From: Candidatus Poriferihabitaceae bacterium
GTDB taxonomy: Bacteria > Pseudomonadota > Gammaproteobacteria > Arenicellales > Poriferihabitantaceae
Direction of reading: 5' to 3'
DNA length: 64,000 nt
NCBI GenBank assembly: GCA_965203365.1
Contig: OZ241878.1
Coordinates: forward strand, 3,495,503-3,559,502
In this document: in pieces, positions 4,062 through 33,080 of the stretch
Position numbering within the stretch: the stretch's first letter is position 1
Layout: each line of letters starts with the position of its first letter
Program-made: the position numbers and the translations under genes
The notes under the pieces: model-generated
Databases searched by the model: none
What the model was told of the DNA's origin: nothing
What the model saw: only the letters and a program-made list of their open reading frames with translations

Positions 4062-4086
4062 CGCCCTTGACCCGAATTACTGCATC

Positions 4087-6567: not shown

Positions 6568-6804
6568 CACCGTTTCCATCACTGACTTTGCTATCACGGC
6601 GGTTGCCGATATGGGGGGCGGTCATTATGAGCATGGAATGTGGAAACGGGTGCCATCCGTAGAAACATTGGAAGCGCCGGGTCACGAGGATGGCGCTTTC
6701 CAAGCCGAAAAAGGTCGGTGTAGTGGGATGCCCTTCATTTCAGGGTCAGGAGCCTGAATCATTCGGACCGGTTCGATTGTCGGGTGTCCGCACGAAGAAG
6801 CGGG

Positions 6805-9411: not shown

Positions 9412-9418
9412 CGTCACA

Positions 9419-10171
9419 TCATGAAGGGTTGGTGAGTTGGTAGTACATGGCGTACAGACGTCCATGATCATCCAGCAGTTCTGTCAATGCCGTGTCGGCT
9501 ACGATTCGTCCCTGTTGTAGAATGATCGCCCGCTGGCAGATGGATTCCGCCTCTTCCAGTATATGGGTAGACATCAGGATGGCCTTGTGCACTGCCAGCT
9601 GGGCTATGAGGCCCCGGATGTCCTGTTTTTGCCGGGGGTCGAGTCCATCAGTAGGTTCATCCAGGATCAGAATGTCGGGGTCATGTACGAGGGCCTGTGC
9701 GAGCCAGACCCGTTGTTGCCAACCCTTGGACAGTCGACGCAATGGGGTGTTGAGGTAGCGGTGCAGCCCAAGGATATCCATGATCCAGTACTCGGCCCGT
9801 CTGGAATCGACTTGGACGGACCGGACATCAGTGATAAATCGCAGGAATTCGGCGCAGGTCAATTCACCGTATCCGCTCATCGCCTCGGGCAGATAACCAA
9901 TCTTCCGGCATATCCGTATCGGATCGCTTGACAGGTCACGGCCATGGACGATGACAGCCCCTGTCGAAGGTTGGAGATAGCCCGTCAGCACACGCATCGT
10001 GGTGGACTTCCCAGCGCCATTGGGTCCCAACAATGCGACCAATTCACCAGGACGGATATGGAAGCTGATCCCATTGATCGCCGTGACATTTCCGTAACGC
10101 ATGGTCAGGTTACGGGCTTCAAGAAATCGTCGATGGGTCGGGGGGGTCTGTATTGGGGATGGAACGCTCAT
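9419..10171 (-). CDS. ABC transporter ATP-binding protein (ABC-2/GldA-like)
   Basis: Walker A GPNGAGKST, signature LSKGWQQR, Walker B ILILDEPTDGLD. Confidence 0.9.
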   Translation of the reverse strand: MSVPSPIQTPPTHRRFLEARNLTMRYGNVTAINGISFHIRPGELVALLGPNGAGKSTTMRVLTGYLQPSTGAVIVHGRDLSSDPIRICRKIGYLPEAMSGYGELTCAEFLRFITDVRSVQVDSRRAEYWIMDILGLHRYLNTPLRRLSKGWQQRVWLAQALVHDPDILILDEPTDGLDPRQKQDIRGLIAQLAVHKAILMSTHILEEAESICQRAIILQQGRIVADTALTELLDDHGRLYAMYYQLTNPS

Positions 10172-10180
10172 AGAGCGGAA

Positions 10181-10435
10181 TTAATGGACGATGAATCCCA
10201 CCACGATAAACAGTGCGATACTCAACCCGGTACAGCCATATCCTACAAGATTCAGGAGAGAAGCACCGCGTTGGCTGACAAATCGGGCGGTTCCCATCCA
10301 GTTGGCGGCGGTGATCAAGACGGCTCCGACTATCGCCAGAACGATGATCACTGGCCTTGAATAGGCCAATGCGAGATCGCCTAGCAATCTGATGTCAGTT
10401 CGGGTTCCGGCGAGAAAAGGCCTCGAGAAAATCAC
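10181..10435 (-). CDS. small hydrophobic membrane protein (hypothetical)
   Basis: Two predicted TM spans (VIIVLAIVGAVLITAANW and GYGCTGLSIALFIVVGFIV). It sits 9 nt upstream of the ABC ATPase. The GTG start at 10435 overlaps the preceding gene. An alternative TTG at 10387 lies just after that gene's stop. Confidence 0.35.
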   Translation of the reverse strand: MIFSRPFLAGTRTDIRLLGDLALAYSRPVIIVLAIVGAVLITAANWMGTARFVSQRGASLLNLVGYGCTGLSIALFIVVGFIVH

Positions 10436-11273
10436 TTTGAGTATTGCGACCGCCCTTGAAGCTCTTCATGGCCTCGTCATGCAAGATTTCCAGGGCGGTA
10501 CTTTTGTAGCCGAAGGCTTCTTCCGAGGACAACATCTGAAAGTCGCGCGGCCTCGGGAGGTCAATGTTGAGAATTTGCCGCACTCGCGTCGGGCGATTGG
10601 ACAGAATAATCAGCTTGTCCGCCAGCAAGATCGCCTCTTCAATCTCGGAGGTCACAAACAGGTTGGTTCGCCGGTTCTCTTCGAATAGTCGCAAGAAGAA
10701 TTCCTGCATCAACTCTCTGGTCATGGCATCAAGGCCCCGAAAGGGTTCATCCATGATCAGCAATTGGGGATTGTTGATAATGGCTCTGGCCAGCTCGGCA
10801 CGACGCTGCATTCCACCGGACAATTGCAAGGGATATTTGTCCTTGAAATCATGTAAGCCGACCTTCTCGAGCAGTCGAATGGCTTCTTCATGAAGCAACT
10901 GTCGGTTCATGTCGCCACGGATTTTGGGGCCGAAGATCACATTTTGATAAGTGGTTTGCCAAGGCATGAGTGCGGTCTCCTGGAAGACCACAATCCGGTC
11001 ATGCGATGGCCCCGAGATCTTGCGGCCGTTCAGAAGAATCTCTCCGCGCTCGGGCATCTCGAATCCAGCTACCAAATTGACCAGTGTAGACTTTCCGCAC
11101 CCCGATGGACCGACTACCGCCGTGAGCTTTCCTGGTTCCACTTCCATACTCAGATCAAGCACAACATCTTGCCAGTTCCATTCTTCGCCATAGCCCTTGC
11201 AGACTCCCTTGAAAATGATATGTCCTTCGCTGCTAGCCTCCGACGGGGTGGCCGATTTTGGATTTTGTGCCAT
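10395..11273 (-). CDS. ABC importer ATP-binding protein, nitrate/sulfonate/taurine (NitT/TauT) type, copy 2
   Basis: Walker A GPSGCGKST, signature LSGGMQRR, Walker B LLIMDEP. I chose the ATG at 11273 (MAQNPKS...) because the longer ORF would overlap the upstream permease. Confidence 0.9.
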   Translation of the reverse strand: MAQNPKSATPSEASSEGHIIFKGVCKGYGEEWNWQDVVLDLSMEVEPGKLTAVVGPSGCGKSTLVNLVAGFEMPERGEILLNGRKISGPSHDRIVVFQETALMPWQTTYQNVIFGPKIRGDMNRQLLHEEAIRLLEKVGLHDFKDKYPLQLSGGMQRRAELARAIINNPQLLIMDEPFRGLDAMTRELMQEFFLRLFEENRRTNLFVTSEIEEAILLADKLIILSNRPTRVRQILNIDLPRPRDFQMLSSEEAFGYKSTALEILHDEAMKSFKGGRNTQSDFLEAFSRRNPN

Positions 11274-11304
11274 GATATGGCTTATCGTGTTGGATGTGGA
11301 AGGG

Positions 11305-12162
11305 TTAGAACAATCTTCGCCATGGCATGCTGCGGTCACCAATCCAGCGGATCGCACTGCTGGACAGATATCCTGCGATACCAATGCTGACCATGCCGAC
11401 GACAATCTGTTCCAAGGACCCCCCCATGTAGGAATTCCAGATGAAAAAGCCGAGTCCGCCACCGCCTTGTGTTCCACCCCCGGAAATCATTTCCGCCGCC
11501 AAAACCACCTCCCAAGTGATACCCATGCCGACCGCTGCACCGGTAAAGATGGATGGTAAGGTGGCGGGCAGAACAATGCGCCAGAACATATCCCAGCGTG
11601 TGGCCCCCATTGATTGGGCTGCCCTCAGCAGTCGGATATCGATACTCCGGGCACCCCCGAGGACATTGATCACGATGGTGAAGAATGCCCCGAGAAACGT
11701 CACAAAGGCAATGGACATTTCATTGGTGGGCCAGAATATCAGTGAACCGGGCACCCAAGCCAAGGGTGGGATGGGCCTGAGCACCTCAAAGGGAGGGAAA
11801 AAGATTTCCCGCAGATATCGACTCACCGCCAGCAACAAACCAAATGGAATGCCAATGAGCATGGCGGCCAGAAAGCCCTGCAGTACCCTACGGAAACTCA
11901 AGTACCAACTTTCCCAGTATCCATATTGTGGAATAACTTCAGCCCATGCCACGACCACGGCGGTGGGCGGAGGAATCAGCCCCAGAAACGGCAACTGGTG
12001 GCCGAACCACTCATCCCATCGCGAGCCGATTTCCCAGAGGATCAGGGTGATCATCACGGCGAAGACCCCACGCCAGAACTTGCTGCTTTGTCTGATCTTC
12101 TCCCAGTGTGTCCTTTCAAACGACCCGCTTGTGGCACTGGGACCTTGTGTCGTGGTGGTCAT
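11305..12162 (-). CDS. ABC importer permease (NitT/TauT type), copy 2
   Basis: Multi-span membrane protein. It has an EAA-like loop region (RAAQSMGATRWDMFWRIVLP) typical of binding-protein-dependent permeases. Confidence 0.85.
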   Translation of the reverse strand: MTTTTQGPSATSGSFERTHWEKIRQSSKFWRGVFAVMITLILWEIGSRWDEWFGHQLPFLGLIPPPTAVVVAWAEVIPQYGYWESWYLSFRRVLQGFLAAMLIGIPFGLLLAVSRYLREIFFPPFEVLRPIPPLAWVPGSLIFWPTNEMSIAFVTFLGAFFTIVINVLGGARSIDIRLLRAAQSMGATRWDMFWRIVLPATLPSIFTGAAVGMGITWEVVLAAEMISGGGTQGGGGLGFFIWNSYMGGSLEQIVVGMVSIGIAGYLSSSAIRWIGDRSMPWRRLF

Positions 12163-12194
12163 CTCTTTTCGCTATCTATCGGCAACTTGTTCTG

Positions 12195-13049
12195 TCAGGC
12201 CAATTCGCGTTCACCAGCCTCGAATGCCTTCAGGGCCTCCTCGTGCACCGCTTCGCTGGTTTTATCCATCAGATGTCGGAATGCTTCCGACGACAGGACG
12301 TGGTAATCCCTCGGCCGGGGGATGGACACATTCAGGATCTTCTTGGTTTTGCAGGGCCGTGTGGTCATCACCACGACCCGGTCCCCAAGAAAAATCGCTT
12401 CTTCCAGGTCGTGTGTGATGAAGAACATGGTGACACGGGTGCGGTCGTACATCTCCAGCAGTGCTTCGTGCATGATGGATTTGGTCAATTCATCCATGGC
12501 GCGATACGGTTCATCCAACAACAGGACTTTGGGGTCGTTGATCAGCGCCCGAACGATCTCTGCACGGCGCGCCATGCCGGATGAGACTTCTCCCGGATAC
12601 TTCTCCAGAAAATCCCCCAATCCTGCCTCGTCCAGCATATGGCGGGCTTTCTCGCGAGCTTCGGTCTTTTCCAACTTGCCTTGGACGAGGGGGCCATAGG
12701 CGACATTGTCCGTCAGGGTTTTCCAAGGGAACAGCGCTCCGTTTTGAAATACCACGACCCGGTCTGCACCCTGATTGGCCTGAGGCTTGTTGGGTCCGCA
12801 TAGCAGTTGACTATCCAGAAAGATTTCCCCCATGGTGATGGAGTGAAATCCCGCGATGGCATTCAGTAATGTGGTCTTGCCGCATCCACTGGGCCCTACG
12901 ACCATGCAGACTTCGCCGGCCGCGATTTCAAGGGAGCAATCATCGACCGCCAACACATTCACTCCCTCTGGATCATAGATCTTGGTGACGTTGCGAATGC
13001 TGATCGCACCCTGGGTCTGTACTGGCGGCTCTTCGGAATGACTGCTCAT
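12195..13049 (-). CDS. ABC importer ATP-binding protein (NitT/TauT type), copy 1
   Basis: Walker A GPSGCGKTT, signature VSSGMARR, Walker B VLLLDEP. I chose the ATG at 13049 (MSSHSEEPP), 8 nt downstream of the upstream permease stop. Confidence 0.9.
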   Translation of the reverse strand: MSSHSEEPPVQTQGAISIRNVTKIYDPEGVNVLAVDDCSLEIAAGEVCMVVGPSGCGKTTLLNAIAGFHSITMGEIFLDSQLLCGPNKPQANQGADRVVVFQNGALFPWKTLTDNVAYGPLVQGKLEKTEAREKARHMLDEAGLGDFLEKYPGEVSSGMARRAEIVRALINDPKVLLLDEPYRAMDELTKSIMHEALLEMYDRTRVTMFFITHDLEEAIFLGDRVVVMTTRPCKTKKILNVSIPRPRDYHVLSSEAFRHLMDKTSEAVHEEALKAFEAGERELA

Positions 13050-13057
13050 ATGTCTCG

Positions 13058-13939
13058 CTACCGGTTTTCCATCGCCAGGGCCCGAGTCCGCCATTGCATC
13101 ATTCGACTGCCAACGATTCTCACGATTACGGAAGTCCCCCAGCCGACAAACCCCAATGTCACCATGCCAATGACCATTGGAATGGTCACGTTATTCATAT
13201 AGGCGTCGATAATCAGATAACCCAAGCCGTAATCCCCGGAAACCATTTCGGCCGCCACCAAGGAAAACCAGGCCACTCCCACGCTAATTTGCAGGCCCGT
13301 GAAGATGAAGGGTAGAGCGCCGGGCACCACGACATGAAAGAAGACATGATGTGGCTTGGAGCCTAGGCACCCTGCGGCCCGGAAATAGGCCTCATCAATG
13401 GAATCGACGCCAAGTAGCGTGTTCAGTGTGGTGACGTACAAAGAAGCGAGCGTCGCGAGAAAGATGACCGGTCCTTCGAAACCGCGGAACATCAAGATGG
13501 CCAAGGGCACCCAAGCGAGTATGGGGATTGGCCTCAAGGTCTCCAGCAAGGGGAAGGTATATTCCCGAAAACGCCTGGACCACCCCATGCAAAGTCCCAG
13601 AGGCACACCGACACCGGTTGCGATGCAGAAGGCATAGAAGATGCGTCGACAGCTCACATAGACATGCTGATAAAACTCTTGGGTGAATATGGAGATTCCG
13701 AGAAAGGGCTCGGGTGCAAACAACTCCTTCAGCACCATAACCGGCCCCGGCATTTTTTCAAACCGAGGCGCTTTCAGCACTTCACACAACATCCACCAGA
13801 CGAACAACCACAGCGTAATACCCGCGACCGCCAGATAGGGAGAGGATTTTCTCAGGTTTCGCTTCAGGCGAAACAGGAATACTCGTAGACCGGTGGGATG
13901 CGGGCCACCCTGATTGGTGATTGCCTCGGTATCAGCCAT
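13058..13939 (-). CDS. ABC importer permease (NitT/TauT type), copy 1
   Basis: Multi-span membrane protein with the EAA-like loop FRAAGCLGSKPHHVFFHVVVP. Confidence 0.85.
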   Translation of the reverse strand: MADTEAITNQGGPHPTGLRVFLFRLKRNLRKSSPYLAVAGITLWLFVWWMLCEVLKAPRFEKMPGPVMVLKELFAPEPFLGISIFTQEFYQHVYVSCRRIFYAFCIATGVGVPLGLCMGWSRRFREYTFPLLETLRPIPILAWVPLAILMFRGFEGPVIFLATLASLYVTTLNTLLGVDSIDEAYFRAAGCLGSKPHHVFFHVVVPGALPFIFTGLQISVGVAWFSLVAAEMVSGDYGLGYLIIDAYMNNVTIPMVIGMVTLGFVGWGTSVIVRIVGSRMMQWRTRALAMENR

Positions 13940-14097
13940 GGCCTTTCATCGGAAGGAGGGTGTGAGTCGGGTCGGGCGGCACAATCCAATGCCATTCATC
14001 AGGTGATGAATGGCAGGAATCGCCTGTCGTTTCAAGTGGGGCCGGGTGGCGGAGCATGGATGCTGCCCCCGGCCCCAAGAAATCCGACCGATTAGAG

Positions 14098-15228
14098 TCA
14101 GTCGGACGCTTTGATCACTCCCAGGGGACTGCTCAGTCCCCGGGCTTCCAGAACCTCACGAGCTACCGCATCCGTCACGCCACCAGGTCGAATATTGGGT
14201 TCGGCGGCCGGCTTTTTGGGCAGGCTGTAGAGGAAGGCAGTGGCATCATCCAGCAGGGACTGTACCCGGTCATTCACGATGAAATCCAATTGCACCTTAA
14301 CGTCTCCGCCTCCCTGATTTTTAGGCCAGCCCCCGAACATGGCATGTTTCAGGACCTTCCGGTCAATTTTCTCGGTTTGGGATTCAGCGAGTGCTGCCAC
14401 TTCGTCGGCATTGGCGGGATCCGCCATGAACAGTTGGGCATCCAATTCCGCTTCCAGCCATCCACGATGCACATCCGGCCGCTGGGAGATCAGATCATTC
14501 AGCATGACCATGAAGGCCCCGTCCAAGGCATCAAAGTCTTCCCCACTCGCGGCACGACGGGCAATGCCTGACATCACGATCTTGGAAGCAGTGGGTTCCC
14601 AGATTGCTGCCGCATCCAGCTTTCCAGCACGGAAATTGGTCGTGATGACCTCAATATTCTGGTTGAGATATCGCTTTGGTTCGATACCCGCCTGTTGAAA
14701 CGCTAGCCGAGCGAATCGGTCGGTACAAGCACCATGAGGAGCAGAAGTGGTTTTTCCATCCATCCACTTCACTGCCTCCACCCCGTTAGCGAATTCCGGG
14801 GCATCGTTGCGGACCAGGAAAATGTTGCATTGCTGCTTTGAGGTCCCCAAGGCTGCCACAATACGAATGTCAGTCCCGCCCCTTTCCTGGATGTTGCGGA
14901 AGGTGGAAGCAATGGCTGGCATGTCCCCCATGTAACCAATATGTTGTTTTTCACCGGTCATCGCATTGACGATGACAGAACCTTGGAGGCCAATCTGGAA
15001 TTCGGCGGTGGAGCCTTCTGGCAAATGCTTTTTCCACATCTGCTTGCCGTTATTGACGACACCGGACCAGGATTCGGTATAGTAAGGTTGATAACCGATC
15101 ACCAAATTGACGGGCTCGCCCGGAGAGCCAAAGTCCACGTCAGCGTGTGCGGATTGAGCTAGCCCGAAAGAGATGGCCAACACCGCACCAAGTGCAGCGG
15201 TGATTCGGCAGTAGGTTGTTCTCATCAT
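14098..15228 (-). CDS. periplasmic substrate-binding protein of sulfonate/nitrate (SsuA/TauA/NMT1-like) type
   Basis: GAGGAG Shine-Dalgarno 7 nt before the ATG at 15228. Signal peptide MMRTTYCRITAALGAVLAISFGLAQSAHA. The body is NMT1/SsuA-like (VNLVIGYQPYY...). It lies directly downstream of the msm oxygenase genes. Confidence 0.8.
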   Translation of the reverse strand: MMRTTYCRITAALGAVLAISFGLAQSAHADVDFGSPGEPVNLVIGYQPYYTESWSGVVNNGKQMWKKHLPEGSTAEFQIGLQGSVIVNAMTGEKQHIGYMGDMPAIASTFRNIQERGGTDIRIVAALGTSKQQCNIFLVRNDAPEFANGVEAVKWMDGKTTSAPHGACTDRFARLAFQQAGIEPKRYLNQNIEVITTNFRAGKLDAAAIWEPTASKIVMSGIARRAASGEDFDALDGAFMVMLNDLISQRPDVHRGWLEAELDAQLFMADPANADEVAALAESQTEKIDRKVLKHAMFGGWPKNQGGGDVKVQLDFIVNDRVQSLLDDATAFLYSLPKKPAAEPNIRPGGVTDAVAREVLEARGLSSPLGVIKASD

Positions 15229-15468
15229 GCTGATCTCCTCTTTGATCGTGTTTGTGTATGGTGTTGCTTTTTCCCCATTCCGACGATTCAAAGAATCTGT
15301 ACGCAATGTGGTGACCTTGTAATCTCAAACCATCCAGAGCGATTTGTAAAATGATTCAAGTCAATTAAGCGATTGCCACAAACTATCAACTTGTCCGGTC
15401 GGCATTTCTTCGGTCTGCATAGGTATGTTGCGGGTCGGTCGGGGGGGATTGGTTCAGTCATCATCTGG

Positions 15469-16569
15469 TCAGGAGAACTTGTCGTAACGAATGCGACTGG
15501 GTGGAACCCGGGCTTCGAGAATCAAGGACCGGATCGCGCCATCTACCATTGGGGGCGGTCCGGCTAGATAGACCATCAGGTTGTCCCGAGAAGAGGAATC
15601 TTCATTGAGAGAAGCTATCGCCACTTCGTGCACGAAACCGGTCGACCAATTCAGTTCCGATGGCAAAGCGTTTCGGTCCAGATGGGCTTCGTGGGAAAAG
15701 ACAACGGTCACGGTCAGGTTTCCTGCCAAATCGGATTGCAATTTGCATAGTCGATCCATGAAAAACAGGTCCTTGGTCGTCCGCACGCCAAAAAACAGGT
15801 GGGCCTGTCGATTTTGCAGATGGTTGCTGGTCTGGGCGTGGGATAGGATCGACAGCAGTCCGGCGATCCCTGAACCACCCCCAATCAGCCATAAGGAACA
15901 ACCCTCGTCGGGATGGAAGGTGGCTCGCCCCAAGGGGCCGAATGCGTGGATGCCTTCTACGGATTTATGGCAGTGGAATGCCCATTCGGAAAACCCGCCC
16001 CCAGATAATCGTTTGATGACAAACTCCAGTCGGTGGGTACGGTCGGCGTAATTGACCATGGAGTAGGCGCGAAATCCTGGCAGGTTCGGCGCCTGTAAGA
16101 CAAAATACTGGCCCGCGTGGAAGTGTACCGGTTCGGGGAATTGGGCGAAGAACCTCCGGATGTCTCGTGCGGGTTCACTCCAGTCACCTATCGTGACGAT
16201 CTGGTGATCCGGACTGATGTCATCATGGCGAAACGGGTGCATGTCCCCGGAGATGCCGATCTTGCACCGGGTGGATGCCGTCGCTTGGCACAGCAGGAAT
16301 TCATGCCGTTTTGGCTTGAGGGTTTTCTTTCCGGGCGCATTCTCCCAGCCCGAATGGATCTCGCCTTCTTTCAGTCTTCCCTTGCAGGTTCCACAAGTGC
16401 CGGTTGCGCATTCATACGGCAGGGGAAGTCCGGCGCGCAATCCGGCGTACAAGAGTTTCTCTCCGGGATAGGCCTCAAAAGTGTCGGATTGCGTCTTATT
16501 GCCGATCTCGATCAGCATGGGGATAAGGCAAGAAAGGGGGCTAGGGTCGTCGTGGGTATCCCGTCTCAC
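15469..16569 (-). CDS. msmD: oxygenase reductase component: plant-type 2Fe-2S ferredoxin domain fused to an FNR-like FAD/NAD(P)H domain (MsmD-like)
   Basis: Cys cluster CATGTCGTCKG, the FAD-binding RAYSMV (RxYS) motif, and the NAD-binding GGGSGIAG motif. The GTG start abuts the msmC stop (TGAGTG). An alternative start is the ATG at 16518. Confidence 0.8.
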   Translation of the reverse strand: MRRDTHDDPSPLSCLIPMLIEIGNKTQSDTFEAYPGEKLLYAGLRAGLPLPYECATGTCGTCKGRLKEGEIHSGWENAPGKKTLKPKRHEFLLCQATASTRCKIGISGDMHPFRHDDISPDHQIVTIGDWSEPARDIRRFFAQFPEPVHFHAGQYFVLQAPNLPGFRAYSMVNYADRTHRLEFVIKRLSGGGFSEWAFHCHKSVEGIHAFGPLGRATFHPDEGCSLWLIGGGSGIAGLLSILSHAQTSNHLQNRQAHLFFGVRTTKDLFFMDRLCKLQSDLAGNLTVTVVFSHEAHLDRNALPSELNWSTGFVHEVAIASLNEDSSSRDNLMVYLAGPPPMVDGAIRSLILEARVPPSRIRYDKFS

Positions 16570-16914
16570 TCAGTCGTCATCGTCGTCAAAATCATATTCC
16601 AGCTCCTGGTCCAGATACACCATGACTTGATCCCCCTCTTGCTTCACGTCATACATCAGTAGGGGTTTTTCCGCCGGACCGAGGGTTTCTCCAGTCCCCA
16701 TGTTCCATTGCCAGAGATGTTTGGTACAGGTCATGACGCCATTTTGGCAGATGGCCGATTCGTGCAGCGGTTCTTCCATATGCGGGCACATGGTCGGGTA
16801 GGCACGATAGCCATCATCAATGTGGGCAATCAGGATTCTGATTCCATCCACTTCAAATTGTTTGACCGTATCAATGGCGACATCGGCCGCGGCACAAACT
16901 GCTTTCCAAGTCAT
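16570..16914 (-). CDS. msmC: Rieske-type [2Fe-2S] ferredoxin component (MsmC-like)
   Basis: CPH-X17-CTKH, counted in MCPHMEEPLHESAICQNGVMTCTKHLWQW. Small acidic protein with a DDDDD tail. Confidence 0.85.
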   Translation of the reverse strand: MTWKAVCAAADVAIDTVKQFEVDGIRILIAHIDDGYRAYPTMCPHMEEPLHESAICQNGVMTCTKHLWQWNMGTGETLGPAEKPLLMYDVKQEGDQVMVYLDQELEYDFDDDDD

Positions 16915-16955: not shown

Positions 16956-17453
16956 TTAGATAGGGTAATGGGTTCCCTTGTCGAGACGTCGGTTTTGCAA
17001 CCTGACTTCACGTTCGGAAAATTTCACCTCCCCGTCGTCAATGGAAAACCGGTCATGGTAGCGACCAATGAGGAACAGATTCGAACTGCCGGCGTCCACA
17101 TGGGAATTGATGCCGTCCAGAAGGGTTTGATAGACCGCCAGAGAGGTGGTGGCGGTGGCGGATGCGCCGTCTTCAGCCACTTGGACATCGTAAACCGTGC
17201 AATGGCGTGTCAAGGGCGAATGGTCTGAATTGTGCTTGGGCAGCATATCGACCATTGAACGCATATGTTCACGACTTCCGCTGAGATAGGTCATATCCGA
17301 GCTGATTTCCGGGCTGTACACCCGGATCGCATATTCGAATCCGTCATCACAGGCGTCCAGCCATCCATGCCAGTTGAGGTCGTCAAGGTGGAGGCAGGTT
17401 CGATAAATGAGGGATTTGATTTTCTCGATAATTTCGGCATTGTGCGCAGACAT
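16956..17453 (-). CDS. msmB: Rieske oxygenase small (beta) subunit (MsmB-like)
   Basis: Size and sequence are those of a ring-hydroxylating beta subunit (SnoaL-like): LHLDDLNWHGWLDACDDGFEY...FLIGRYHDRF. It lies between the alpha-subunit and ferredoxin genes. Confidence 0.8.
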   Translation of the reverse strand: MSAHNAEIIEKIKSLIYRTCLHLDDLNWHGWLDACDDGFEYAIRVYSPEISSDMTYLSGSREHMRSMVDMLPKHNSDHSPLTRHCTVYDVQVAEDGASATATTSLAVYQTLLDGINSHVDAGSSNLFLIGRYHDRFSIDDGEVKFSEREVRLQNRRLDKGTHYPI

Positions 17454-17543: not shown

Positions 17544-18818
17544 TCAGGCGTGGGCTCTTTGGTCAACTGCGATGGACTGGGGGATCTGGTAGGCCTCGAA
17601 CACCTCGTCCGGATTGCTGGGCGAACGGTCCAGCCAGCGGCCCCATTCCTCATAGTAATGACGCATTCCGTTTTCATCATGAATGGTTTCGTTTTCATGG
17701 CGGCCATGCAGGATCAGTCGACTTTCGGCGGTCGGATGCATGCAGGCCCCTTGTGCGGTGACCGCCAACAGGTCTTCATGCAGATTGCGCCCGAATGGTC
17801 CCCATATGCTGTTGTGGTGTTCAATCCGGCTTTGGCGTTCCTCCGGTGTGTCACTGGCCAGACCGAGGCCACGGAATTCGATCAGCACCTTGTCTGGTCC
17901 CAGCGGGGTCATCAGGTCACATCTGAGGGCGGAACCACGAAGGTTGAAATTGACCCCGGGAAACATGTCGATCATATACCAGTGATTGGGTGGTAGATGA
18001 GGGAAAGACAGGGTTTCGCGGGACTCGAATCCCTGATACTTGTCGTACTGAACCTCAAAGCTGCCAACATTGATGTGGCCATTTCGAAACCCTGAGTTCT
18101 TGCGGGCGAAATACGCATCGTTGAAGCCCGTAATTCGATTGTGATAGTGCAGGAAGTCGTGATAGAACTCGCAGTTGGTGTCGTGCCATAACTTGTAGTT
18201 GCAAGGAATGATGGCCTTGTGATAGTGGAATATTTCCAACGGCTCCTCATCCAGCGAAGGCCGCAGGCAGTCCAAGGCCCCCGCCGCCCACTCTTTCACA
18301 CTCATGGGATTCTCGTCATCCAGTGTGACCCACACAAAACCACCAAAATGGATTTCCGTATTGAGTTCTCTGAGCCCCACATCCTGTCGCTTGAGACGGT
18401 CTTGATACCCTTCCTGCTGCCGGGAGATATAGACACAGCGCCCCTTCATGTCGAATTGCCAGGCATGGAACATGCAGGTCATATGCCGGGGGGTGCCAGA
18501 GGGTGAACCCTCCAGAAAACTACCGGAGGGCCGACGTTCGATCATGTTGCCGCGGTGCGGACAGACATTCAGGAAGGAGCGTACCTTCATGTCCTTGCCG
18601 CGGACCACAATGATTGGTTCGCGGGCCAAGGTCACCGTCCGAAAATCATAGGCATTTTTCAGTTCGGATTCGTGGCAGACGGGAATCCAAGCCTTTTTCC
18701 AGATCTTATCGAGTTCTTCCTCGAAGATGGCGTGATCGGAATAGATCCTGCTGTCCACCCACTCACCCTTGGCGAGTTTGGGCGGTGCAGTCCATTGTGC
18801 GTGATTTCTTGAAGTCAT
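17544..18818 (-). CDS. msmA: methanesulfonate monooxygenase hydroxylase large subunit (Rieske oxygenase alpha)
   Basis: Rieske ligands CPH and CMFH are separated by 26 residues (RGNMIERRPSGSFLEGSPSGTPRHMT), the spacing reported as the MsmA hallmark. Ordinary Rieske oxygenases have about 16-18. A mononuclear-iron region, WHDTNCEFYHDFLHYH, follows. Confidence 0.85.
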   Translation of the reverse strand: MTSRNHAQWTAPPKLAKGEWVDSRIYSDHAIFEEELDKIWKKAWIPVCHESELKNAYDFRTVTLAREPIIVVRGKDMKVRSFLNVCPHRGNMIERRPSGSFLEGSPSGTPRHMTCMFHAWQFDMKGRCVYISRQQEGYQDRLKRQDVGLRELNTEIHFGGFVWVTLDDENPMSVKEWAAGALDCLRPSLDEEPLEIFHYHKAIIPCNYKLWHDTNCEFYHDFLHYHNRITGFNDAYFARKNSGFRNGHINVGSFEVQYDKYQGFESRETLSFPHLPPNHWYMIDMFPGVNFNLRGSALRCDLMTPLGPDKVLIEFRGLGLASDTPEERQSRIEHHNSIWGPFGRNLHEDLLAVTAQGACMHPTAESRLILHGRHENETIHDENGMRHYYEEWGRWLDRSPSNPDEVFEAYQIPQSIAVDQRAHA

Positions 18819-18870
18819 GACAGGGTTCGTTGTTGAATTTCGAATGTGCCGCCGACAGTGGATATCGCAC

Positions 18871-19758
18871 TCAACGGATCTCGTCGAGCTTGGATGTCCA
18901 TTGCACGGCTTCGGCGAACTTCTTGAGTTCGTCGGGTTTCATGTAGACCGTGTGTTCCGGCCCGGGATATGCCCGGGATTTGACCTCATCCCGGTAGCGG
19001 ACAAACACATCCTCCATGATCGGAATCAGGTCAGTGTAGATCTTTGAGTGCCGGGGTACATGTTCCTCGTACAGATGGAACAGGTCGGAAGTGATGATGT
19101 GCACGCCATCCGCCTTGTTGCCCGCTCCCAAACTGATGACTGGCACAGGCAGGGTTTCAGTCAGGTACTGACAGACTTCTTCACTGGTCACCTCACACAG
19201 AATGGAAAAGCAGCCTGCATCCACCATGGCCCAGGCATCGTCAACCAACTGTCGGGCCCGGTCAGCCGTTTTACCTTGGGCAAAGAAACCGCCAAGTTGT
19301 GGCATGCGCATGGGGGTGATACCAATGTGCCCCTGCACCGGTATACCAGCCTTCACGATCGCTTCGATGTTTTTCGCGTGATGCTGGTTGCCTTCGCATT
19401 TCATGACTTCGGCATTGGCCTCGTGAACGAAACGACCGGCATTCTCCACGGCCTGTTCCGGGGAAACATGGAAGCTCCAATAGGGCATGTCGACCATCCT
19501 CAAACCGTACTGGCTCCCTCGATCAATGGCCTTAGCCATCATCATCACTTCATCGAATGTTACTGTGACAGTGGATTTGTGCCCAAACAACACCATGCCA
19601 CCGGTATCTGAGACACAGAGAATATCAATGCCCAAACGGTCCGCAATGACAGCACTGCGATAGTCATAGATCGCCATCTGGACGATCTGTTCACCTTCCT
19701 GCATTTTCTTGCGCAGTTGATTGATGCCGATTTTTCTTCGCTTGGCAGGTTCCGTCAT
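18871..19758 (-). CDS. 3-methyl-2-oxobutanoate hydroxymethyltransferase (PanB) family paralog
   Basis: GGAG Shine-Dalgarno before the ATG at 19758. It is collinear with E. coli PanB as recalled: AIYDYRSAVIADRLGIDILCVSD, PVQGHIGITP, ILCEVTS (conserved Glu retained), VPVISLGAG, and a YPGPEH tail. It is the first gene of the msm array. Confidence 0.85.
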   Translation of the reverse strand: MTEPAKRRKIGINQLRKKMQEGEQIVQMAIYDYRSAVIADRLGIDILCVSDTGGMVLFGHKSTVTVTFDEVMMMAKAIDRGSQYGLRMVDMPYWSFHVSPEQAVENAGRFVHEANAEVMKCEGNQHHAKNIEAIVKAGIPVQGHIGITPMRMPQLGGFFAQGKTADRARQLVDDAWAMVDAGCFSILCEVTSEEVCQYLTETLPVPVISLGAGNKADGVHIITSDLFHLYEEHVPRHSKIYTDLIPIMEDVFVRYRDEVKSRAYPGPEHTVYMKPDELKKFAEAVQWTSKLDEIR

Positions 19759-20181
19759 GGGATTCTCCGGGGTGGCTTGTCCAGTGGCCAAATTGTTCTG
19801 ATACAGTAGCGTGACGATTTTCAACTCTATGAGTGCGAGCACCAGTCGTCAAAGTGATCTTTTCTATGATTCAATAGATGACACCTAAATGATGCGGGTA
19901 GAGGGTGTCCTGTGACATAGGCGCAGTGACCAATCCCCCACCCCTCACTAATGTGCTTGCTCGGGCCGAAAGGGAGGGGGCTGAGTGGGGGCGATGCATC
20001 CGAGTCCCGTGATGTCTCCGTGAAGATGGTCCTGGGTCAGCCTGATGCCAGCATCAGTCCCATACCCACCGTTCTTTCGGATAGGGCACTGCGAGGATGC
20101 CGCGGCTATCTGACCTGCAGTGGGGGCAGGATGACGGGTGTCGCCCATAGGTCATTTCATCGCCTTGATGGTGGCGGACGA

Positions 20182-20508
20182 TCAGCCTGTGATACCAAGA
20201 TCGATCAGGTCGTGTGCAATCGAATCAGTCGAGCCCCAATTCATTACGGTGGCACCCGAGAGGCAGTCATTGCCGAACAGCAGATAACTGGTATCAGGGT
20301 ACAGCATATCCGCAGCGAATCATCCGACAAGAGGGATTTTTTCGGTAAGTGCTGTATGGAGAGTCCAGTCGTTTTGGTCGTTGTAAGCGCTGATCTCAAA
20401 CCCCTTTTCACCGACATCCGAGACGGCCAACGTAACAGGGAACGCCAGTGAGGAAATATTGTGTGTGGCCAAAATACAACGGTTTCCCAAGTGTGGGATA
20501 GTGGCCAA
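20182..20508 (-). pseudogene. 109-codon reading frame interrupted by one in-frame TGA (20320-20322); unknown family
   Basis: TTG start preceded by AGAGGGA. MATIPHLGNRCILATHNISSLAFPVTLAVSDVGEKGFEISAYNDQNDWTLHTALTEKIPLVG, then TGA, then FAADMLYPDTSYLLFGNDCLSGATVMNWGSTDSIAHDLIDLGITG, all in one frame. Confidence 0.25.
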
Positions 20509-20888
20509 ATCCCTCTAGGAGCTGGAAACTCGTCGGTCCTTGAGCAGCAAATATAAATATTTCGTTAGAAAGATCCACAGGGCCTGTCGTGCCGACGCGA
20601 TGGGTGCAGATGCACTCGAATATCGTCCAGATGTCCGGGGCCAGACATCAGACCGTGACATCGGATACGCCATTGATTCATCCAGGCAAACACCATAGCG
20701 AATGTCACCCGGCTGCCTGATCACCCATCCAGCGGGACAGGCCAGCCTCCAAACAACTCGCGCTTCCCGGTCCTGACATGCGCACCTTCTCGGCTATGAT
20801 GTTGCCATCATCCGGTTGCCGAAATCAGCGAGGCCACCTATTTTGCCGTCGGAGAGATGGCATGTCGGAGCATTTGCCTCGGGATTGA

Positions 20889-20953: not shown

Positions 20954-21868
20954 ATGTATCTCAGGCAGTTTCAATATCTGGTAGCGCTGGAACAGGAGGG
21001 ACATTTTGGGCGGGCGGCGGAGAAATGCCATGTGTCCCAGCCGAGCTTGTCCAGTTCACTGAAGAGTCTGGAAGAGGAGCTCGGATTCCCCATTATTCTG
21101 CGGCAACAGAAATTCCAGGGGTTCTCGAAGGAGGGGGAGGTGGTGATCAGCTGGGCGAAGAGGCTGCTGGCTGATCGTTCAGCGATGCTGGACGAACTCG
21201 CTGTGATGCGAGAAAACCTGAATGGTCAACTCCGTATTGGGGCGAGTCCCATGAGTTCACCCCTGTTTCCGGCCGTCAGTCAACTGGTGCAGCAACGATA
21301 CCCTCACGTACAGCTCGACATCCAATTTATGGGATTGGACCAGCTCGTGCACGGCCTGAATAATTTTGAGTTGGATGTGGGGTTCACCGACCTGGATGAC
21401 CCGCAGCTGGAAAAATTTGTGACCTTGCCGTTATACGACGATCCCCTCTATCTGCTGCTGCCTGAAAATGACTGGCTGGGGGATGCTCCCACCAGTTCCT
21501 GGAAAGAGGCGGCGACCCTGCCGTTGTCCCTGTTGTCGGACACCACCCGCGAACGCCAGATCATGGATGCGGCTTTTCGCCAAGTGGGATGTCACCCGAC
21601 ACCGAGACTGGAGTCGAATTCCATTTTCCAGTTGGCGTTCCACGCCATGGCTGGCGACTTGGCGACCATCGTCCCCAAGCGCTTTGCTCATTTGCCGAAT
21701 ACCCGGCAGAAATTGCTGGAATCACCCAATATATCGCAGTGCATGGGGTTGGTCTGGGTTCCGGGGGATCCGGTATTTCCCATGACAACGGCGATTGAAT
21801 CCCTGATGCGGACGGCACTGAAATCCGGATTGCTGGACGAATCCTCGTTTCTGGATAGTGGAGCCTGA
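20954..21868 (+). CDS. LysR family transcriptional regulator
   Basis: N-terminal HTH FGRAAEKCHVSQPSLSSSLKSLEEELG and a typical LysR substrate-binding domain length. It is divergent from the msm array. Confidence 0.9.
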   Translation: MYLRQFQYLVALEQEGHFGRAAEKCHVSQPSLSSSLKSLEEELGFPIILRQQKFQGFSKEGEVVISWAKRLLADRSAMLDELAVMRENLNGQLRIGASPMSSPLFPAVSQLVQQRYPHVQLDIQFMGLDQLVHGLNNFELDVGFTDLDDPQLEKFVTLPLYDDPLYLLLPENDWLGDAPTSSWKEAATLPLSLLSDTTRERQIMDAAFRQVGCHPTPRLESNSIFQLAFHAMAGDLATIVPKRFAHLPNTRQKLLESPNISQCMGLVWVPGDPVFPMTTAIESLMRTALKSGLLDESSFLDSGA

Positions 21869-25503: not shown

Positions 25504-25902
25504 TTGTCTCCATCCGGTCGGATGACTTCGTGGACCGGGTTCCCGGAAGGGAAATTCTGCGCCGTTTCCGAGTGGGATATCGGGATGGTGGAGAGCACCG
25601 GATCCCAAGACGACGACACCCCTGAGGCTGGCAAGGGCAATGACCCCCTCTGGGATGCCGCCGCCGACCGGTCCGTGCTCGACGGGGAGTCCGAAACCGA
25701 TACCATCCACGATGTCGAGGTCGGGCAGGACACCCTCGTCCTCAAAATCGATCTGAAGTTTGCCGACCTTGACATCAAGCAGCGCGGCGAGTGTTGCATT
25801 TCGGGGTGGAAGTGGGGATGGATGATGTTGCATCTCAATGTTCAATGGGCGATAGTTATCATCTGCCGATGTACACATCAGTGCCTCATCCGACCCAGTT
25901 GA
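25504..25902 (+). CDS. hypothetical acidic protein (frame uncertain, possibly frameshifted with an ATG at 25461)
   Basis: The centre (about 25600-25790) has strong third-position G/C bias in this frame (DDDTPEAGKGNDPLWDAAADRSVLDGESETDTIHDVEVGQDTLVLKIDLKFADLDIKQRGE). The ends look non-coding. I recognised no family. Confidence 0.25.
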   Translation: MSPSGRMTSWTGFPEGKFCAVSEWDIGMVESTGSQDDDTPEAGKGNDPLWDAAADRSVLDGESETDTIHDVEVGQDTLVLKIDLKFADLDIKQRGECCISGWKWGWMMLHLNVQWAIVIICRCTHQCLIRPS

Positions 25903-27114
25903 GTGGACCAAGTGTCAAGGGTGCCAGAGCCCAAAAAATTCACGATTTCCAGTGCCAGCGCCATTCTGACGCCTGACACCCCCGGGCTGAAGCCACTGGT
26001 TCGAAGCGTTTGTGAAGGAAGATCAATTCGTGCACGACAGTCTGCAGACCGACCGGTTGCCAGTGGTACCGATCAGGAGCAGTATCTTTATGGTGAAAGC
26101 TCGGGGACCAGTGGAGCCCCCAAAAGGATCCGCAGACGCCCCTCGACCTGGATACAGAGTTTTGAGATCAATCGTGAACGATTCGGCCTGAACTCATCCG
26201 ACACCTATGCAATCTTCGGCAGCCTGGGACATTCATTGTCCCTGTATGCGGTACTGGAAGCGTTGCATGTCGGCGCGGATTTGGCTTCTTTATCTGGTCT
26301 GGGACTGAGAAATCAGGTGCGCCATGTTGTGAGCGGTCGGATCAGTGTGATCTATGCCACTCCGACCCAGATGCGACGGTTTTCAATCGCGGCCAGACAA
26401 CTTGGCCATGTTCACATGACGGGTGTGCGTCGGTTGTTTGTCGGTGGGGGAAAACTGGACTGTGCCGTTCGTCAGGCATTGGGTGAATGCTTCCCGAACG
26501 CCGAGATTCGGGAATTTTACGGGACCAGTGAAACCAGTTTCATCGCGCTGTCCGATGAACGAACTCCAGATGGCTCGGTGGGACAACCCTATCCCCAGGT
26601 GACCCTACGGATTGCGCCCGCGAATCAGGCCGATTCGGGTCCCACCGGTGAGATCCAGGTGTCGAGTCCGTATCTGTTTGACGGATACGAATCGGGGGAC
26701 GGCCAGATCATCCGAACTCGTGCGGAGCATTTCTGGCGTGTGGGTGATATCGGGTGGGTGGACGAGGATGGTTACCTGTTCCTGAAGGGAAGACGAGACC
26801 GGATGGTCACAGTGGCGGACGTCAATGTCTATCCGGAAGAGATCGAAAGCATCATTTCGGGCGAGCCTGGGATCAAAGTCTGTGCCGTGATGCCGATGGT
26901 GGATGATCGACGCGGTCACCGGATCCTGGCGATTCTCGAAGGAACCCCCGACTGGCAGCAGGAATACAGGATTCGACAACAGTGCCGCGAAAAGCTCCAT
27001 GCGTTGGCCGTCCCCTCCCGGTTCGAATATTGGCACCACATTCCCGTACTGCCGACGGGCAAGCCTGACCTGCAAGCCATCCAGAAACGGTTGGATACTC
27101 ACCGTGAAGCCTAG
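25903..27114 (+). CDS. AMP-dependent (ANL superfamily) acyl-activating enzyme, N-terminally short form
   Basis: P-loop SSGTSGAPK already at residues 66-74, YGTSETS (A5), SSPYLFDGY, WRVGDIGWVDEDGYLFLKGRRDRMV (A8) and PTGKPD (A10 Lys). The start codon is uncertain (GTG at 25903). Confidence 0.8.
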   Translation: MDQVSRVPEPKKFTISSASAILTPDTPGLKPLVRSVCEGRSIRARQSADRPVASGTDQEQYLYGESSGTSGAPKRIRRRPSTWIQSFEINRERFGLNSSDTYAIFGSLGHSLSLYAVLEALHVGADLASLSGLGLRNQVRHVVSGRISVIYATPTQMRRFSIAARQLGHVHMTGVRRLFVGGGKLDCAVRQALGECFPNAEIREFYGTSETSFIALSDERTPDGSVGQPYPQVTLRIAPANQADSGPTGEIQVSSPYLFDGYESGDGQIIRTRAEHFWRVGDIGWVDEDGYLFLKGRRDRMVTVADVNVYPEEIESIISGEPGIKVCAVMPMVDDRRGHRILAILEGTPDWQQEYRIRQQCREKLHALAVPSRFEYWHHIPVLPTGKPDLQAIQKRLDTHREA

Positions 27115-28219
27115 TGGAGTCGTGGCGGCTCGACGGTCGGCCGTTGTCCCCCGAAACGGACGCTTTGCGGCGTTTTCACTGCATGAGATGGCCGTTCCCG
27201 TGGTGAGACAGGTACTGGCGGATGCGGGCATATCCCCCCAGCAGGTGGGGGAACTGATCGTCTCCAATTCGCTCGGCGAGGGAGGCAATCCCGCCCGAGT
27301 GGTCAGTCTGGCCAGTGGCTTGCCGTTGTCAGTGGCCGGATTGACGATAGACCGGCAGTGTGTCGGGGGACTGGATGCCCTTCTTCAGGCGGATGCCATG
27401 ATCCGGGCGGGCCGGCATGAGGTTGTGGTGGCGGGGGGGGTGGAAAGCTATTCCCGACGCCCCCTTCGCTATCGAACTTTTGTCGACGGGTCGCAGCCGG
27501 AACCCTATGAGCAGGCTCCCTTCACCCCCTGGCCGGACCAGGATCCGGACATGGCACAGGCAGCGAACCGCCTGGCTCGACAGTTTGGCATCAGTCGAGC
27601 GGAACAGGACAGTTGGGCGATTGACAGCCATCACAAGGCGCTTTCGGTATCGAACAGCCGCCGACGAGAACAAGTCGTCGAGCTCAATGGAGTGCTGGAA
27701 GATCCGTTCACACGCCCTCTCAGCCCTGCTGTCTGCCAACGGGCGACCGTCGTTCATGGCGAGATCACGATGGCCAACATGGCGGTGGCGGCCGATGCGG
27801 CGGCCTTCACTGTTCTGACCGCGAAAGAACTCGCCGACGAGCTTCAAACGCCCTGGATGGAGCTGGTGTCAGGGGTCACCTTGGGAGGGGACCCCGTGCT
27901 ACCCGGATTGGCCCCGGTCCGGGCCATCGGTCACACCCTTCACATGGCAGGATGTTCCACGAACGACCTTCGGATCGCGGAAATTATGGAAGCCTTTGCC
28001 GTGCAGGCGATGGTCTGTCAACGGGAGGCCAATCTGCCTTATGGGATTGTCAACCCCCATGGTGGATCACTGGCCCGAGGGCATCCGATTGGGGCTTCAG
28101 GAGCGGTGCTGGCGGTGAATCTGTTTCATGCCTTGGTTCAATGTGGCGGCATCGGACTGGCGGCGATCGCGGCCGCTGGTGGACTGGGCACCGCATTGGT
28201 GGCCCACCTCGACCACTGA
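27104..28219 (+). CDS. thiolase-family protein lacking the second catalytic cysteine
   Basis: The GTG at 27104 overlaps the ligase stop by 11 nt. The nucleophile Cys is present (TIDRQCVGGLDAL) and the GHP His is present (GGSLARGHPIGASG). The usual C(I/A)GGG Cys position reads AAIAAAGGLG. Confidence 0.85.
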   Translation: MKPSGVVAARRSAVVPRNGRFAAFSLHEMAVPVVRQVLADAGISPQQVGELIVSNSLGEGGNPARVVSLASGLPLSVAGLTIDRQCVGGLDALLQADAMIRAGRHEVVVAGGVESYSRRPLRYRTFVDGSQPEPYEQAPFTPWPDQDPDMAQAANRLARQFGISRAEQDSWAIDSHHKALSVSNSRRREQVVELNGVLEDPFTRPLSPAVCQRATVVHGEITMANMAVAADAAAFTVLTAKELADELQTPWMELVSGVTLGGDPVLPGLAPVRAIGHTLHMAGCSTNDLRIAEIMEAFAVQAMVCQREANLPYGIVNPHGGSLARGHPIGASGAVLAVNLFHALVQCGGIGLAAIAAAGGLGTALVAHLDH

Positions 28220-32885: not shown

Positions 32886-33080
32886 CGGCGTTGCCTGCCG
32901 TGTTCGAGGTGTTCTCCGAATCCCTTAGAACCTAATTCATTTTTTCGGGTACACGCAATGGGCAGTGGGCGTGCATGAACACGACGCAAGTCGGCGGGAA
33001 TCCCGAAGCTGTCTTTTGTACCCACTTGGACCTCCCGGTTCAAGGTAAAGTGAACGCACGGCACGGGCGGGTAACGCTGT
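32886..33080 (+). ncRNA. ssrS: 6S RNA (approximate ends)
   Basis: The ORF-free interval between zapA and the 5-formyl-THF cyclo-ligase gene is the classical ssrS position. The 5' segment GGCGTTGCCTGCCGTGTTC pairs, with bulges, to the 3' segment GAACGCACGGCACGGGCGGGTAACGC, giving a long closing helix. An internal GGTTCAAGG element resembles the E. coli 6S 3' arm. Confidence 0.75.

Follow-up and report, generated by a model that had tools for sequence, protein, structure and literature searches.

We analysed a stretch of 64,000 nucleotides (nt), hereafter the window, from contig OZ241878.1 of a Candidatus Poriferihabitaceae bacterium (Gammaproteobacteria, Arenicellales). Its subject is a gene of the PanB (ketopantoate hydroxymethyltransferase, KPHMT) family which lies directly upstream of msmABCD, the genes of methanesulfonate (MSA) monooxygenase. 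MsmABCD hydroxylates the methyl carbon of MSA and the products are formaldehyde and sulfite. We argue from comparative sequence analysis that this PanB-like gene probably encodes a previously undescribed step handling the one-carbon (C1) product of MSA breakdown, and not a vitamin B5 enzyme. The gene and the msm cluster that follows it are made up as listed here (window positions).

18871-19758, minus strand: PanB-like gene, 295 aa, msm-linked subfamily (PF02548, TIGR00222/NF001452 scores, orthologues)
19765-19768, minus strand: GGAG ribosome-binding site of the PanB-like gene, 6 nt 5′ of the ATG
17544-18818, minus strand: msmA, Rieske large subunit of MSA monooxygenase, 424 aa (Rieske and Ring_hydroxyl_A)
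16956-17453, minus strand: msmB, small hydroxylase subunit (SnoaL_4/Ring_hydroxyl_B; syntenic in all loci)
16570-16914, minus strand: msmC, Rieske ferredoxin (PF00355)
15469-16569, minus strand: msmD, reductase (Fer2, FAD_binding_6, NAD_binding_1)
10395-15306, minus strand: msmEFGH-type sulfonate ABC importer and a second ATPase (SsuA-family binding protein, two BPD_transp_1, ATPases)

The gene order is thus PanB-like, msmABCD, msmEFGH, all on the minus strand. The PanB-like frame runs from an ATG at 19758-19756 to a TGA at 18873-18871 and encodes 295 aa; a spacer of 52 nt (18819-18870) separates it from the msmA ATG (18818). An earlier note on this DNA, which gave no strand of its own, had described a full-length PanB-family protein 52 nt upstream of msmA on the same strand, with its own GGAG ribosome-binding site and three conserved segments. 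Coordinates and the PF02548 match agree with this description, GGAG is read at 19768-19765, and ILCEVTS, PVQGHIGITP and VISLGAG are all found in the translation. The GGAG is unchanged in an alignment with the loci L001, L002, L003 and L010, and the orthologues at the equivalent position in the first three are 93% identical to the window protein. A longer open reading frame (ORF) starting at a GTG (19842) is unlikely to be used, the homologues being 292-296 aa long and beginning at the ATG.

The identity of the downstream gene is clear. Window MsmA carries CPH, 26 residues, then CMFH, which is the CXH-X26-CXXH spacer proposed as the MsmA-specific criterion (PMC4433239), and it is 70-90% identical to MsmA of the best 80 genomes, Filomicrobium and Methylocella included. 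Other pan genes were sought by a Pfam scan of ATG-started ORFs of 90 aa or more, chosen greedily as a single set without overlaps, to which ORF 25903-27114 was added and outside of which four short ORFs fall. No panC, panD or panE was found among these selected long ORFs of the 64-kb window, in keeping with the earlier statement that other pantothenate genes are missing from the vicinity.

The region upstream of the PanB-like gene holds four further features:

19824-19852, minus strand: promoter-like element, TTGACG, 17 nt, TAGAGT (consensus scan)
19864-19877, minus strand: dyad CTATTGAATCATAG, unique in the window, 0 expected by chance
19941-20785, minus strand: GcvT-like pseudogene (folate-binding aminomethyltransferase fold), between the PanB-like gene and the LysR gene (tblastn with the L001 orthologue)
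20954-21868, plus strand: divergent LysR-family regulator (PF00126, PF03466), kept in most gammaproteobacterial msm loci

Promoter and terminator matches were used only jointly with conservation across species. The four closest relatives all share TTGACG and, in the -10 region, CATAG without any change, and an extended 18-mer of the dyad CTATTGAATCATAG stands at the same place in L001, L002, L003 and L010; it is a candidate operator of the divergent LysR regulator. In these relatives the dyad and promoter-like element are preceded by a GcvT-like gene that is intact, and the PanB-like gene therefore appears to head its own conserved transcription signal. Among the terminator-like sites listed by the scan, none on the minus strand falls within the 52-nt spacer that separates the PanB-like gene from msmA. 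The placement of the PanB-like gene at the head of the msm transcription unit, as the earlier note had it, is thus supported by a conserved promoter-like site and dyad before the gene in the nearest relatives. An Rfam scan of the whole window at gathering thresholds found no riboswitch (THF, ZTP or other) before the PanB-like gene, its only match being a 6S RNA.

The GcvT-like orthologue is intact, and in the same place, in L001, L002, L003 and L010. What remains of it in the window gives a tblastn alignment with the L001 orthologue (E = 3e-18; 217 aa, 31% identity) that is interrupted by several in-frame stops and shifts frame, and the longest minus-strand ORF inside it has 69 aa (20515-20724). 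The window has kept an intact, strongly constrained PanB-like gene next to a decayed GcvT-like one, which makes the PanB-like protein, to judge from the reading frames, the indispensable member of the PanB-like/GcvT-like pair. An ORF of 166 aa at 19951-20451 on the plus strand was rejected as a gene: it has no Pfam match and is antisense to the GcvT-like remnant.

Membership in the PanB family is unambiguous. The protein matches PF02548 (Pantoate_transf) at E = 3.9e-82 and 276 bits, over profile positions 2-258 of 259. Its score of 212.1 with TIGR00222 exceeds the equivalog cutoff of 207.55, and its score of 253.9 with NF001452 lies below the cutoff of 272; an alphaproteobacterial member of the msm-linked subfamily (L046) is below both cutoffs, with 206.9 and 245.1. 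An AlphaFold model built from a diverse alignment shows the (beta/alpha)8 PanB fold with a pLDDT (predicted local distance difference test) of 95.3. With this model, the top 28 Foldseek matches were all PanB (1OY0_A, TMt 0.96, root-mean-square deviation 1.5 Å); well behind these came lyases from the isocitrate-lyase/PEP-mutase superfamily and phosphonopyruvate hydrolase. The charged residues strictly conserved round the ligand in KPHMT are D45/46, D84, K112, E114, H136 and E181 (PMC13488298). Their counterparts in the window protein (D51, D90, K120, E122, H144, E189, for E. coli D45, D84, K112, E114, H136, E181) are invariant in the msm-linked sequences. The source names shown for these proteins are all ‘3-methyl-2-oxobutanoate hydroxymethyltransferase’.

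The msm-linked sequences form a clade of their own. In an alignment, 63 of them, from Alpha- and Gammaproteobacteria, are 68-100% identical to one another and 26-42% identical to 62 canonical PanB representatives. Because alpha- and gammaproteobacterial clade members are ~75% identical, against a median of 42% among the canonical representatives, the PanB-like gene does not follow the species tree. In a protein library clustered at 50%, a single full-length representative is 80% identical, two more reach 46-47%, and canonical PanBs come next with 31-41%. Among 227 unique clade sequences, 146 of the 295 positions are at least 98% conserved.

Substitutions in the substrate pocket were placed by the four published motifs drawn from structure 1M3U, LVGDS, HLGLTPQS, IPVIGIGAG and DGQILVMHD (PMC13488298). 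Fixed among the 227 unique sequences, these read CVSDT, HIGITPMR, VPVISLGAG and (H/D)GVHIITSD in the clade. In E. coli numbering the pocket-motif changes are G44S, S46T, Q142M, S143R, G201S, I202L, Q211V, I212H and G220H, with L42C as a further change in the alkyl pocket. Q142 and Q211, conserved at 94% and 90% among canonical PanBs, have given way to Met and Val throughout the clade. Residue 143 is an invariant Arg. The altered motifs thus include a new Arg151 and a new His220 (window numbering). Altogether, different residues have become fixed in the clade at 21 positions where conservation in canonical PanB is 75% or more. Two of the altered positions were used in engineered variants with different 2-oxoacid preferences (I202A, I212A; PMC7611260); in the clade they are Leu and an invariant His. 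Since the six charged residues are invariant and the four motifs changed, the metal and general-base chemistry appears kept and the substrate pocket rebuilt. We file the protein as a putative new functional variant, a subfamily within the PanB family and not PanB itself, because fold and catalytic residues match PanB while pocket motifs, context and inheritance pattern do not.

The nearest outgroup proteins, P0126 (L161) and P0128 (L162), are 46-47% identical to the window protein. In P0126 (47%), Thr and Glu replace D84 and K112, and a TauE gene follows downstream. P0128 is flanked by genes for an MFS transporter and for a Crp regulator; GlcD/GlcF-like genes are close by, and a gene of the SBP56 (methanethiol-oxidase) family is 4.5 kb away. 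A tblastn search of the PLSDB plasmids gave 396 PanB matches, all below 60% identity, so that no clade member is plasmid-borne there.

Linkage to msmA was examined in two samples. The genome sample consisted of one-genome-per-species contigs anchored on MsmA (the best 80 of 226 MsmA relatives) and leans to loci whose MsmA is at least 70% identical to that of the window. The metagenome sample held 80 contig loci anchored on the PanB-like protein; there were 160 related loci in all. A clade member was present within 10 kb in 62 of the 80 species-level msmA loci. In 42 of these, nearly all from Gammaproteobacteria, the PanB-like gene lies directly upstream of msmA on the same strand, with a median gap of 73 nt. 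In the other 20 (Xanthobacteraceae, Pseudolabrys and other Alphaproteobacteria) it lies ~6 kb downstream, in a divergent operon TauE - GcvT-like - PanB-like. Among metagenomic clade loci with at least 400 nt downstream, msmA follows in 54 of 67. A further protein, P0101 (24 contigs), heads PanB-like-msmABCD-msmEFGH in 4/4 places shown, which are near-duplicate contigs of one sample; the loci shown have no LysR, TauE or GcvT-like gene upstream. Conserved linkage, proposed earlier as a check in genomes and metagenomes, thus holds in both samples and in two proteobacterial classes.

The two proteins also evolve together. Pairwise identities of the PanB-like protein and MsmA are correlated (r = 0.92, Mantel p ~0.001), and the PanB-like protein is the more conserved one in 91% of pairs. 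Among seven cluster genes compared, LysR included, it has the lowest rate of non-synonymous change (dN), with a dN/dS of 0.03; the comparison used the nearest relatives, in which synonymous change (dS) is saturated (~1.6). Throughout the 160 related loci the neighbours are msm genes, TauE, GcvT-like, FolD and LysR, and never panC/panD in the loci examined.

Two variations on this arrangement were observed. An alphaproteobacterial locus (L048) has two PanB-like copies, at 910-1794 and 18348-19232, one on each side of msmABCD and both 76% identical to the window protein. In addition, a group of divergent MsmA-like proteins, 66-67% identical to MsmA and with MsmB at 45%, also has a PanB-like gene upstream (L081, L086, L087, L091, L095, L096, L101). 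Most of these loci carry TauE and GcvT-like genes before it; L086 is without TauE and L095 without GcvT-like. The substrate of this group may differ from MSA.

The recurrent neighbours deal with folate and sulfite. The usual upstream partner of the PanB-like gene encodes ~333 aa. Of GcvT this protein matches the folate-binding domain alone, with scores well under all GcvT cutoffs, and it also matches the tetrahydrofolate (THF) domains of trimethylamine N-oxide (TMAO) demethylase and sarcosine oxidase. Such THF domains trap nascent formaldehyde as methylene-THF. The GcvT-like gene is found in 30 of the 62 genome loci bearing a PanB-like gene, and the sulfite exporter TauE in 46 of them; TauE is not present in the window. 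FolD occurs in 14/80 genome loci, mostly of the Xanthobacteraceae type (L042, L048, L060, L066, L078 and L080 among them), on the msmEFGH side and 1.8-8.3 kb upstream of msmA. In 3/80 metagenomic loci (L085, L088, L117) FolD is directly downstream of the PanB-like gene. A sulfite dehydrogenase of the SorA/SoxC type is another recurrent neighbour.

A contig from Arenicellales, OZ244194.1, separates the two genes. At 32-54 kb (L032), LysR is divergent from TauE - msmABCD with no PanB-like gene. At 1.89-1.92 Mb (L163), 1.9 Mb from msmA, stands a clade member (P0024, 89% identical) in a GcvT-like-PanB-like pair divergent from a methylenetetrahydrofolate reductase (MTHFR) gene, with an aldehyde dehydrogenase and a DAO-type FAD oxidoreductase alongside. 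This locus shows that the PanB-like/GcvT-like pair can also sit in a general folate-C1 setting. Part of its arrangement recurs in L082 (GcvT-like, PanB-like, then a convergent aldehyde dehydrogenase). Elsewhere (L145 and L157, ~3900-11300), TauE - GcvT-like - PanB-like is followed, in place of msmA, by genes for a protein of 573 aa that matches nothing in Pfam or NCBIfam, for a GMC oxidoreductase and for a short-chain dehydrogenase/reductase; these genes may provide a different source of the module's substrate.

With GcvT-like, FolD and MTHFR as neighbours, the suggestion of the earlier note that the gene connects C1 units to THF fits its genomic setting. The reading to which we incline, with somewhat better than even confidence, is that the PanB-like protein would be a pathway-dedicated hydroxymethyl transferase or lyase, passing the C1 unit of formaldehyde or hydroxymethanesulfonate to THF. 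The gene would belong to a co-inherited MSA catabolic module as a neofunctionalised PanB-fold enzyme, transcribed first in the msm operon under the divergent LysR regulator. The retained machinery would comprise Mg2+ on Asp51/Asp90/Glu122, Lys120, His144 and the general base Glu189. Its substrate would be the C1 product of MsmABCD, either free formaldehyde or the bisulfite adduct hydroxymethanesulfonate, and the hydroxymethyl unit would be handed to THF to give 5,10-methylene-THF and free sulfite. Methylene-THF would then go on to FolD or MTHFR, and sulfite to TauE or the sulfite dehydrogenase. Substrate, THF acceptor and direction of the reaction are the parts of this scheme that we infer; it starts from what the comparisons show of family, fold, catalytic residues, altered pocket, conserved linkage, purifying selection and THF/sulfite neighbourhood.

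A narrower form of this scheme takes the adduct as the sole substrate. The immediate product of MSA hydroxylation is HOCH2SO3- (hydroxymethanesulfonate), which is the formaldehyde-bisulfite adduct, and its hydroxyl has a pKa near 11.7. Formation of the adduct is reversible, but it is thermodynamically stable, with a Kd of ~2e-4 M above the pKa of bisulfite, and it is cleaved only via the alkoxide, at 43 s-1 at high pH (PMC6459274). From this alkoxide rate and the hydroxyl pKa we estimate a breakdown of ~3e-3 s-1 at pH 7.5, which is slow for a catabolic flux; in the cytoplasm the half-life would be of the order of minutes. In the reverse PanB reaction Glu181 deprotonates the hydroxymethyl group, the Mg2+-stabilised leaving group is expelled and the C1 unit passes to THF. 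The PanB scaffold could likewise hasten release and transfer of the C1 unit. Sulfonate and hydroxyl would be chelated on Mg2+, Glu189 would deprotonate the hydroxyl, sulfite would be expelled and the C1 unit passed to THF, with the clade-specific Arg151 and His220 (His217 in most members) binding the sulfonate. The protein would then be a hydroxymethanesulfonate lyase or a hydroxymethanesulfonate:THF hydroxymethyltransferase, the second enzyme of MSA catabolism. We put this forward tentatively, as a version with perhaps one chance in five. The locus on OZ244194.1 with the clade member far from msmA counts against a role restricted to hydroxymethanesulfonate, no sulfite gene being in view there.

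Several points weigh against a dedicated C1 transferase in general. Formaldehyde and THF condense spontaneously, the GcvT-like protein alone could do the formaldehyde/THF job, and the need for a second enzyme is an argument, not an observation. The window protein clears the TIGR00222 PanB equivalog cutoff by 4.5 bits, and for this reason residual or dual ketopantoate activity is possible. Counts from the promoter and terminator consensus scans, taken alone, are not above chance. Finally, 12 msmA loci with full 10-kb flanks have no PanB-like gene nearby, among them those of Hansschlegelia, Methylocella, Ancylobacter, Chelatococcus and Filomicrobium insigne; there the PanB-like gene is either encoded farther off or not universally required. 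In Filomicrobium marinum Y it is just over 10 kb from msmA (PMC4433239, Table 1).

The best surviving rival, which corresponds to the second branch of the idea in the earlier note, is a 2-oxoacid hydroxymethylase or aldolase. It would add MSA-derived C1, from free formaldehyde or from methylene-THF supplied by the GcvT-like protein, to some 2-oxoacid that is not alpha-ketoisovalerate (e.g. pyruvate to 4-hydroxy-2-oxobutanoate), and would serve assimilation or detoxification. PanB's machinery for enolisation and metal binding is retained in full, the alkyl-pocket residues are altered (L42C, I202L, I212H) as expected for another oxoacid, and canonical KPHMT joins free formaldehyde to many 2-oxoacids without THF (PMC7611260). 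However, no recurrent aminotransferase, reductase or aldolase that would use a hydroxymethylated oxoacid was seen among the neighbours examined. GcvT-like, FolD and MTHFR suggest moreover that methylene-THF is produced and oxidised or reduced, not consumed, and many hosts are not known methylotrophs. We consider this activity doubtful, at about the level of a one-in-five chance.

An action unconnected with the C1 product is improbable. The protein would act on another organosulfonate or oxoacid intermediate, for instance in a lyase or hydrolase reaction typical of the isocitrate-lyase/PEP-mutase superfamily, or would be a non-catalytic partner of the monooxygenase. The structural neighbours after PanB, namely superfamily lyases and phosphonopyruvate hydrolase, would agree with the former, as would the minority of clade members without msmA, which lie by an aldehyde dehydrogenase, a DAO-type or GMC oxidoreductase or a TRAP transporter. 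Against this, msmABCD is the dominant and most conserved partner and there is no known oxoacid intermediate in MSA catabolism, while the retention of every catalytic residue speaks against a structural role.

That an ordinary housekeeping PanB of pantothenate biosynthesis came to lie beside msmA by chance is the least credible explanation and very improbable: full-length PF02548, a score above the TIGR00222 cutoff, all six catalytic residues and the source names are what it has in its favour, but it is at odds with the ~75% identity of alpha and gamma members (canonical median 42%), with scores below NF001452 and, for the alphaproteobacterial member, TIGR00222, with the 21 canonical positions replaced by clade-fixed residues (Q142M and Q211V included), with linkage to msmA or TauE and never to panC/panD in the loci examined, and with the two PanB-like copies of L048.

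The remainder of the window carries other genes. Beyond the importer genes lies one further feature of the msm side:

6805-10171, minus strand: ABC-2/ABC_transp_aux pair (gene order and sizes as in the Filomicrobium msm fragment)

This pair is likened to the two ABC genes of that fragment (PMC4433239) by order and sizes only. The 6S RNA (RF00013, 62.7 bits; 32889-33077, plus strand) is followed by a TTG-started gene for 5-formyl-THF cyclo-ligase (33121-33747, plus strand), which is the classical ssrS-ygfA arrangement. On the plus strand at 25504-27114, an in-frame TGA (25900-25902) divides an AMP-binding (acyl-CoA synthetase-like) gene in two, leaving ORFs of 132 aa and 403 aa; a pseudogene, an error in sequencing or recoding of the stop may account for this. 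The thiolase ORF that comes next (26903-28219) overlaps this gene by ~210 nt. Genes for a bacterial alpha-2-macroglobulin (1704 aa) with its paired PBP1C-type transglycosylase (50352-57535, minus strand), an RTX repeat protein of the calcium-binding type (42052-42834, plus strand) and a Fic-domain protein (5323-6567, plus strand) are ordinary accessory genes unrelated to the PanB-like gene.

The gene has been listed once before. In ‘Candidatus Filomicrobium marinum’ Y, Table 1 of Henriques & De Marco 2015 (PMC4433239) gives a ‘3-methyl-2-oxobutanoate hydroxymethyltransferase’ (‘C1-moiety transfer’), along with LysR, TauE, glycine-cleavage-T-like, SoxCD, two extra ABC genes, msmEFGH and msmABCD. 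The earlier note, which with reserve knew of no such component in msm clusters, has to be amended as to this mention of the gene and of a GcvT-like gene, neither of which was analysed in that article. Our literature search found no paper tying panB to msmA beyond this table row and one sentence in the same article, later msm surveys without mention of the PanB-like gene, no functional study of it, and no paper naming hydroxymethanesulfonate together with MSA monooxygenase. For the subfamily, its altered pocket and its conservation we found no earlier description; the gene itself was only listed in 2015. As a whole, the earlier interpretation of the PanB-like gene stands in its structural claims and in the linkage to msmA; it had missed the altered pocket and the decayed partner gene upstream.

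Oxidation of dimethylsulfide in the atmosphere yields MSA as a major product. So far, the breakdown of MSA by bacteria has been described as one enzyme step (MsmABCD) followed by generic metabolism of formaldehyde and sulfite. A protein more conserved than MsmA and carried in most msmABCD clusters implies a further dedicated step, which could be how formaldehyde and sulfite, toxic and mutually reactive, are separated and routed to the folate pool. If true, nature would here have put the PanB scaffold to a new use, a matter of interest for C1 biocatalysis. Annotation of clade members as PanB would inflate the pantothenate prototrophy inferred for marine and sponge-symbiont genomes, and the PanB-like gene could serve as a second metagenome marker of MSA degradation.

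Among known systems, the closest is PanB/KPHMT itself (EC 2.1.2.11; E. coli 1M3U, M. tuberculosis 1OY0), with which the clade shares the Pfam family, the (beta/alpha)8 fold, the six charged residues and a similar length, save a C-terminal extension of ~25 aa. It differs by an identity of 26-42%, by its four altered pocket motifs, by its linkage to msmABCD/TauE instead of panC/panD, and by its inheritance across classes together with the msm genes. In logic, the proposed function is like that of the GcvT-fold THF domains of Tdm, SoxA, dimethylglycine oxidase and DmdA, in which an adjacent folate protein captures the formaldehyde released by an oxygenase or oxidase. Exactly such a fold is found in the protein usually encoded just upstream of the PanB-like gene, whereas the PanB-like protein itself is unrelated in fold and would rely on Mg2+-dependent chemistry. 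The GcvT-like partner is missing in about half of the loci and a pseudogene in the window, and the PanB-like gene is kept.

The role proposed for the PanB-like protein is also analogous to that of the formaldehyde-activating enzyme Fae in methylotrophy dependent on tetrahydromethanopterin, which speeds the otherwise spontaneous condensation of formaldehyde with a pterin carrier. Fae has an unrelated fold, and its carrier is tetrahydromethanopterin. That the PanB scaffold accepts free formaldehyde is known from KPHMT used as a THF-independent formaldehyde carboligase (PMC7611260); there, the engineered E. coli I202A/I212A changes enlarge the hydrophobic pocket, whereas the natural clade has Leu and an invariant His. 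The nearest precedent by gene content is the msm region of Filomicrobium Y (PMC4433239), where the PanB-like gene lies in a separate operon, whereas in the window it is the predicted first gene of the msmABCD operon.

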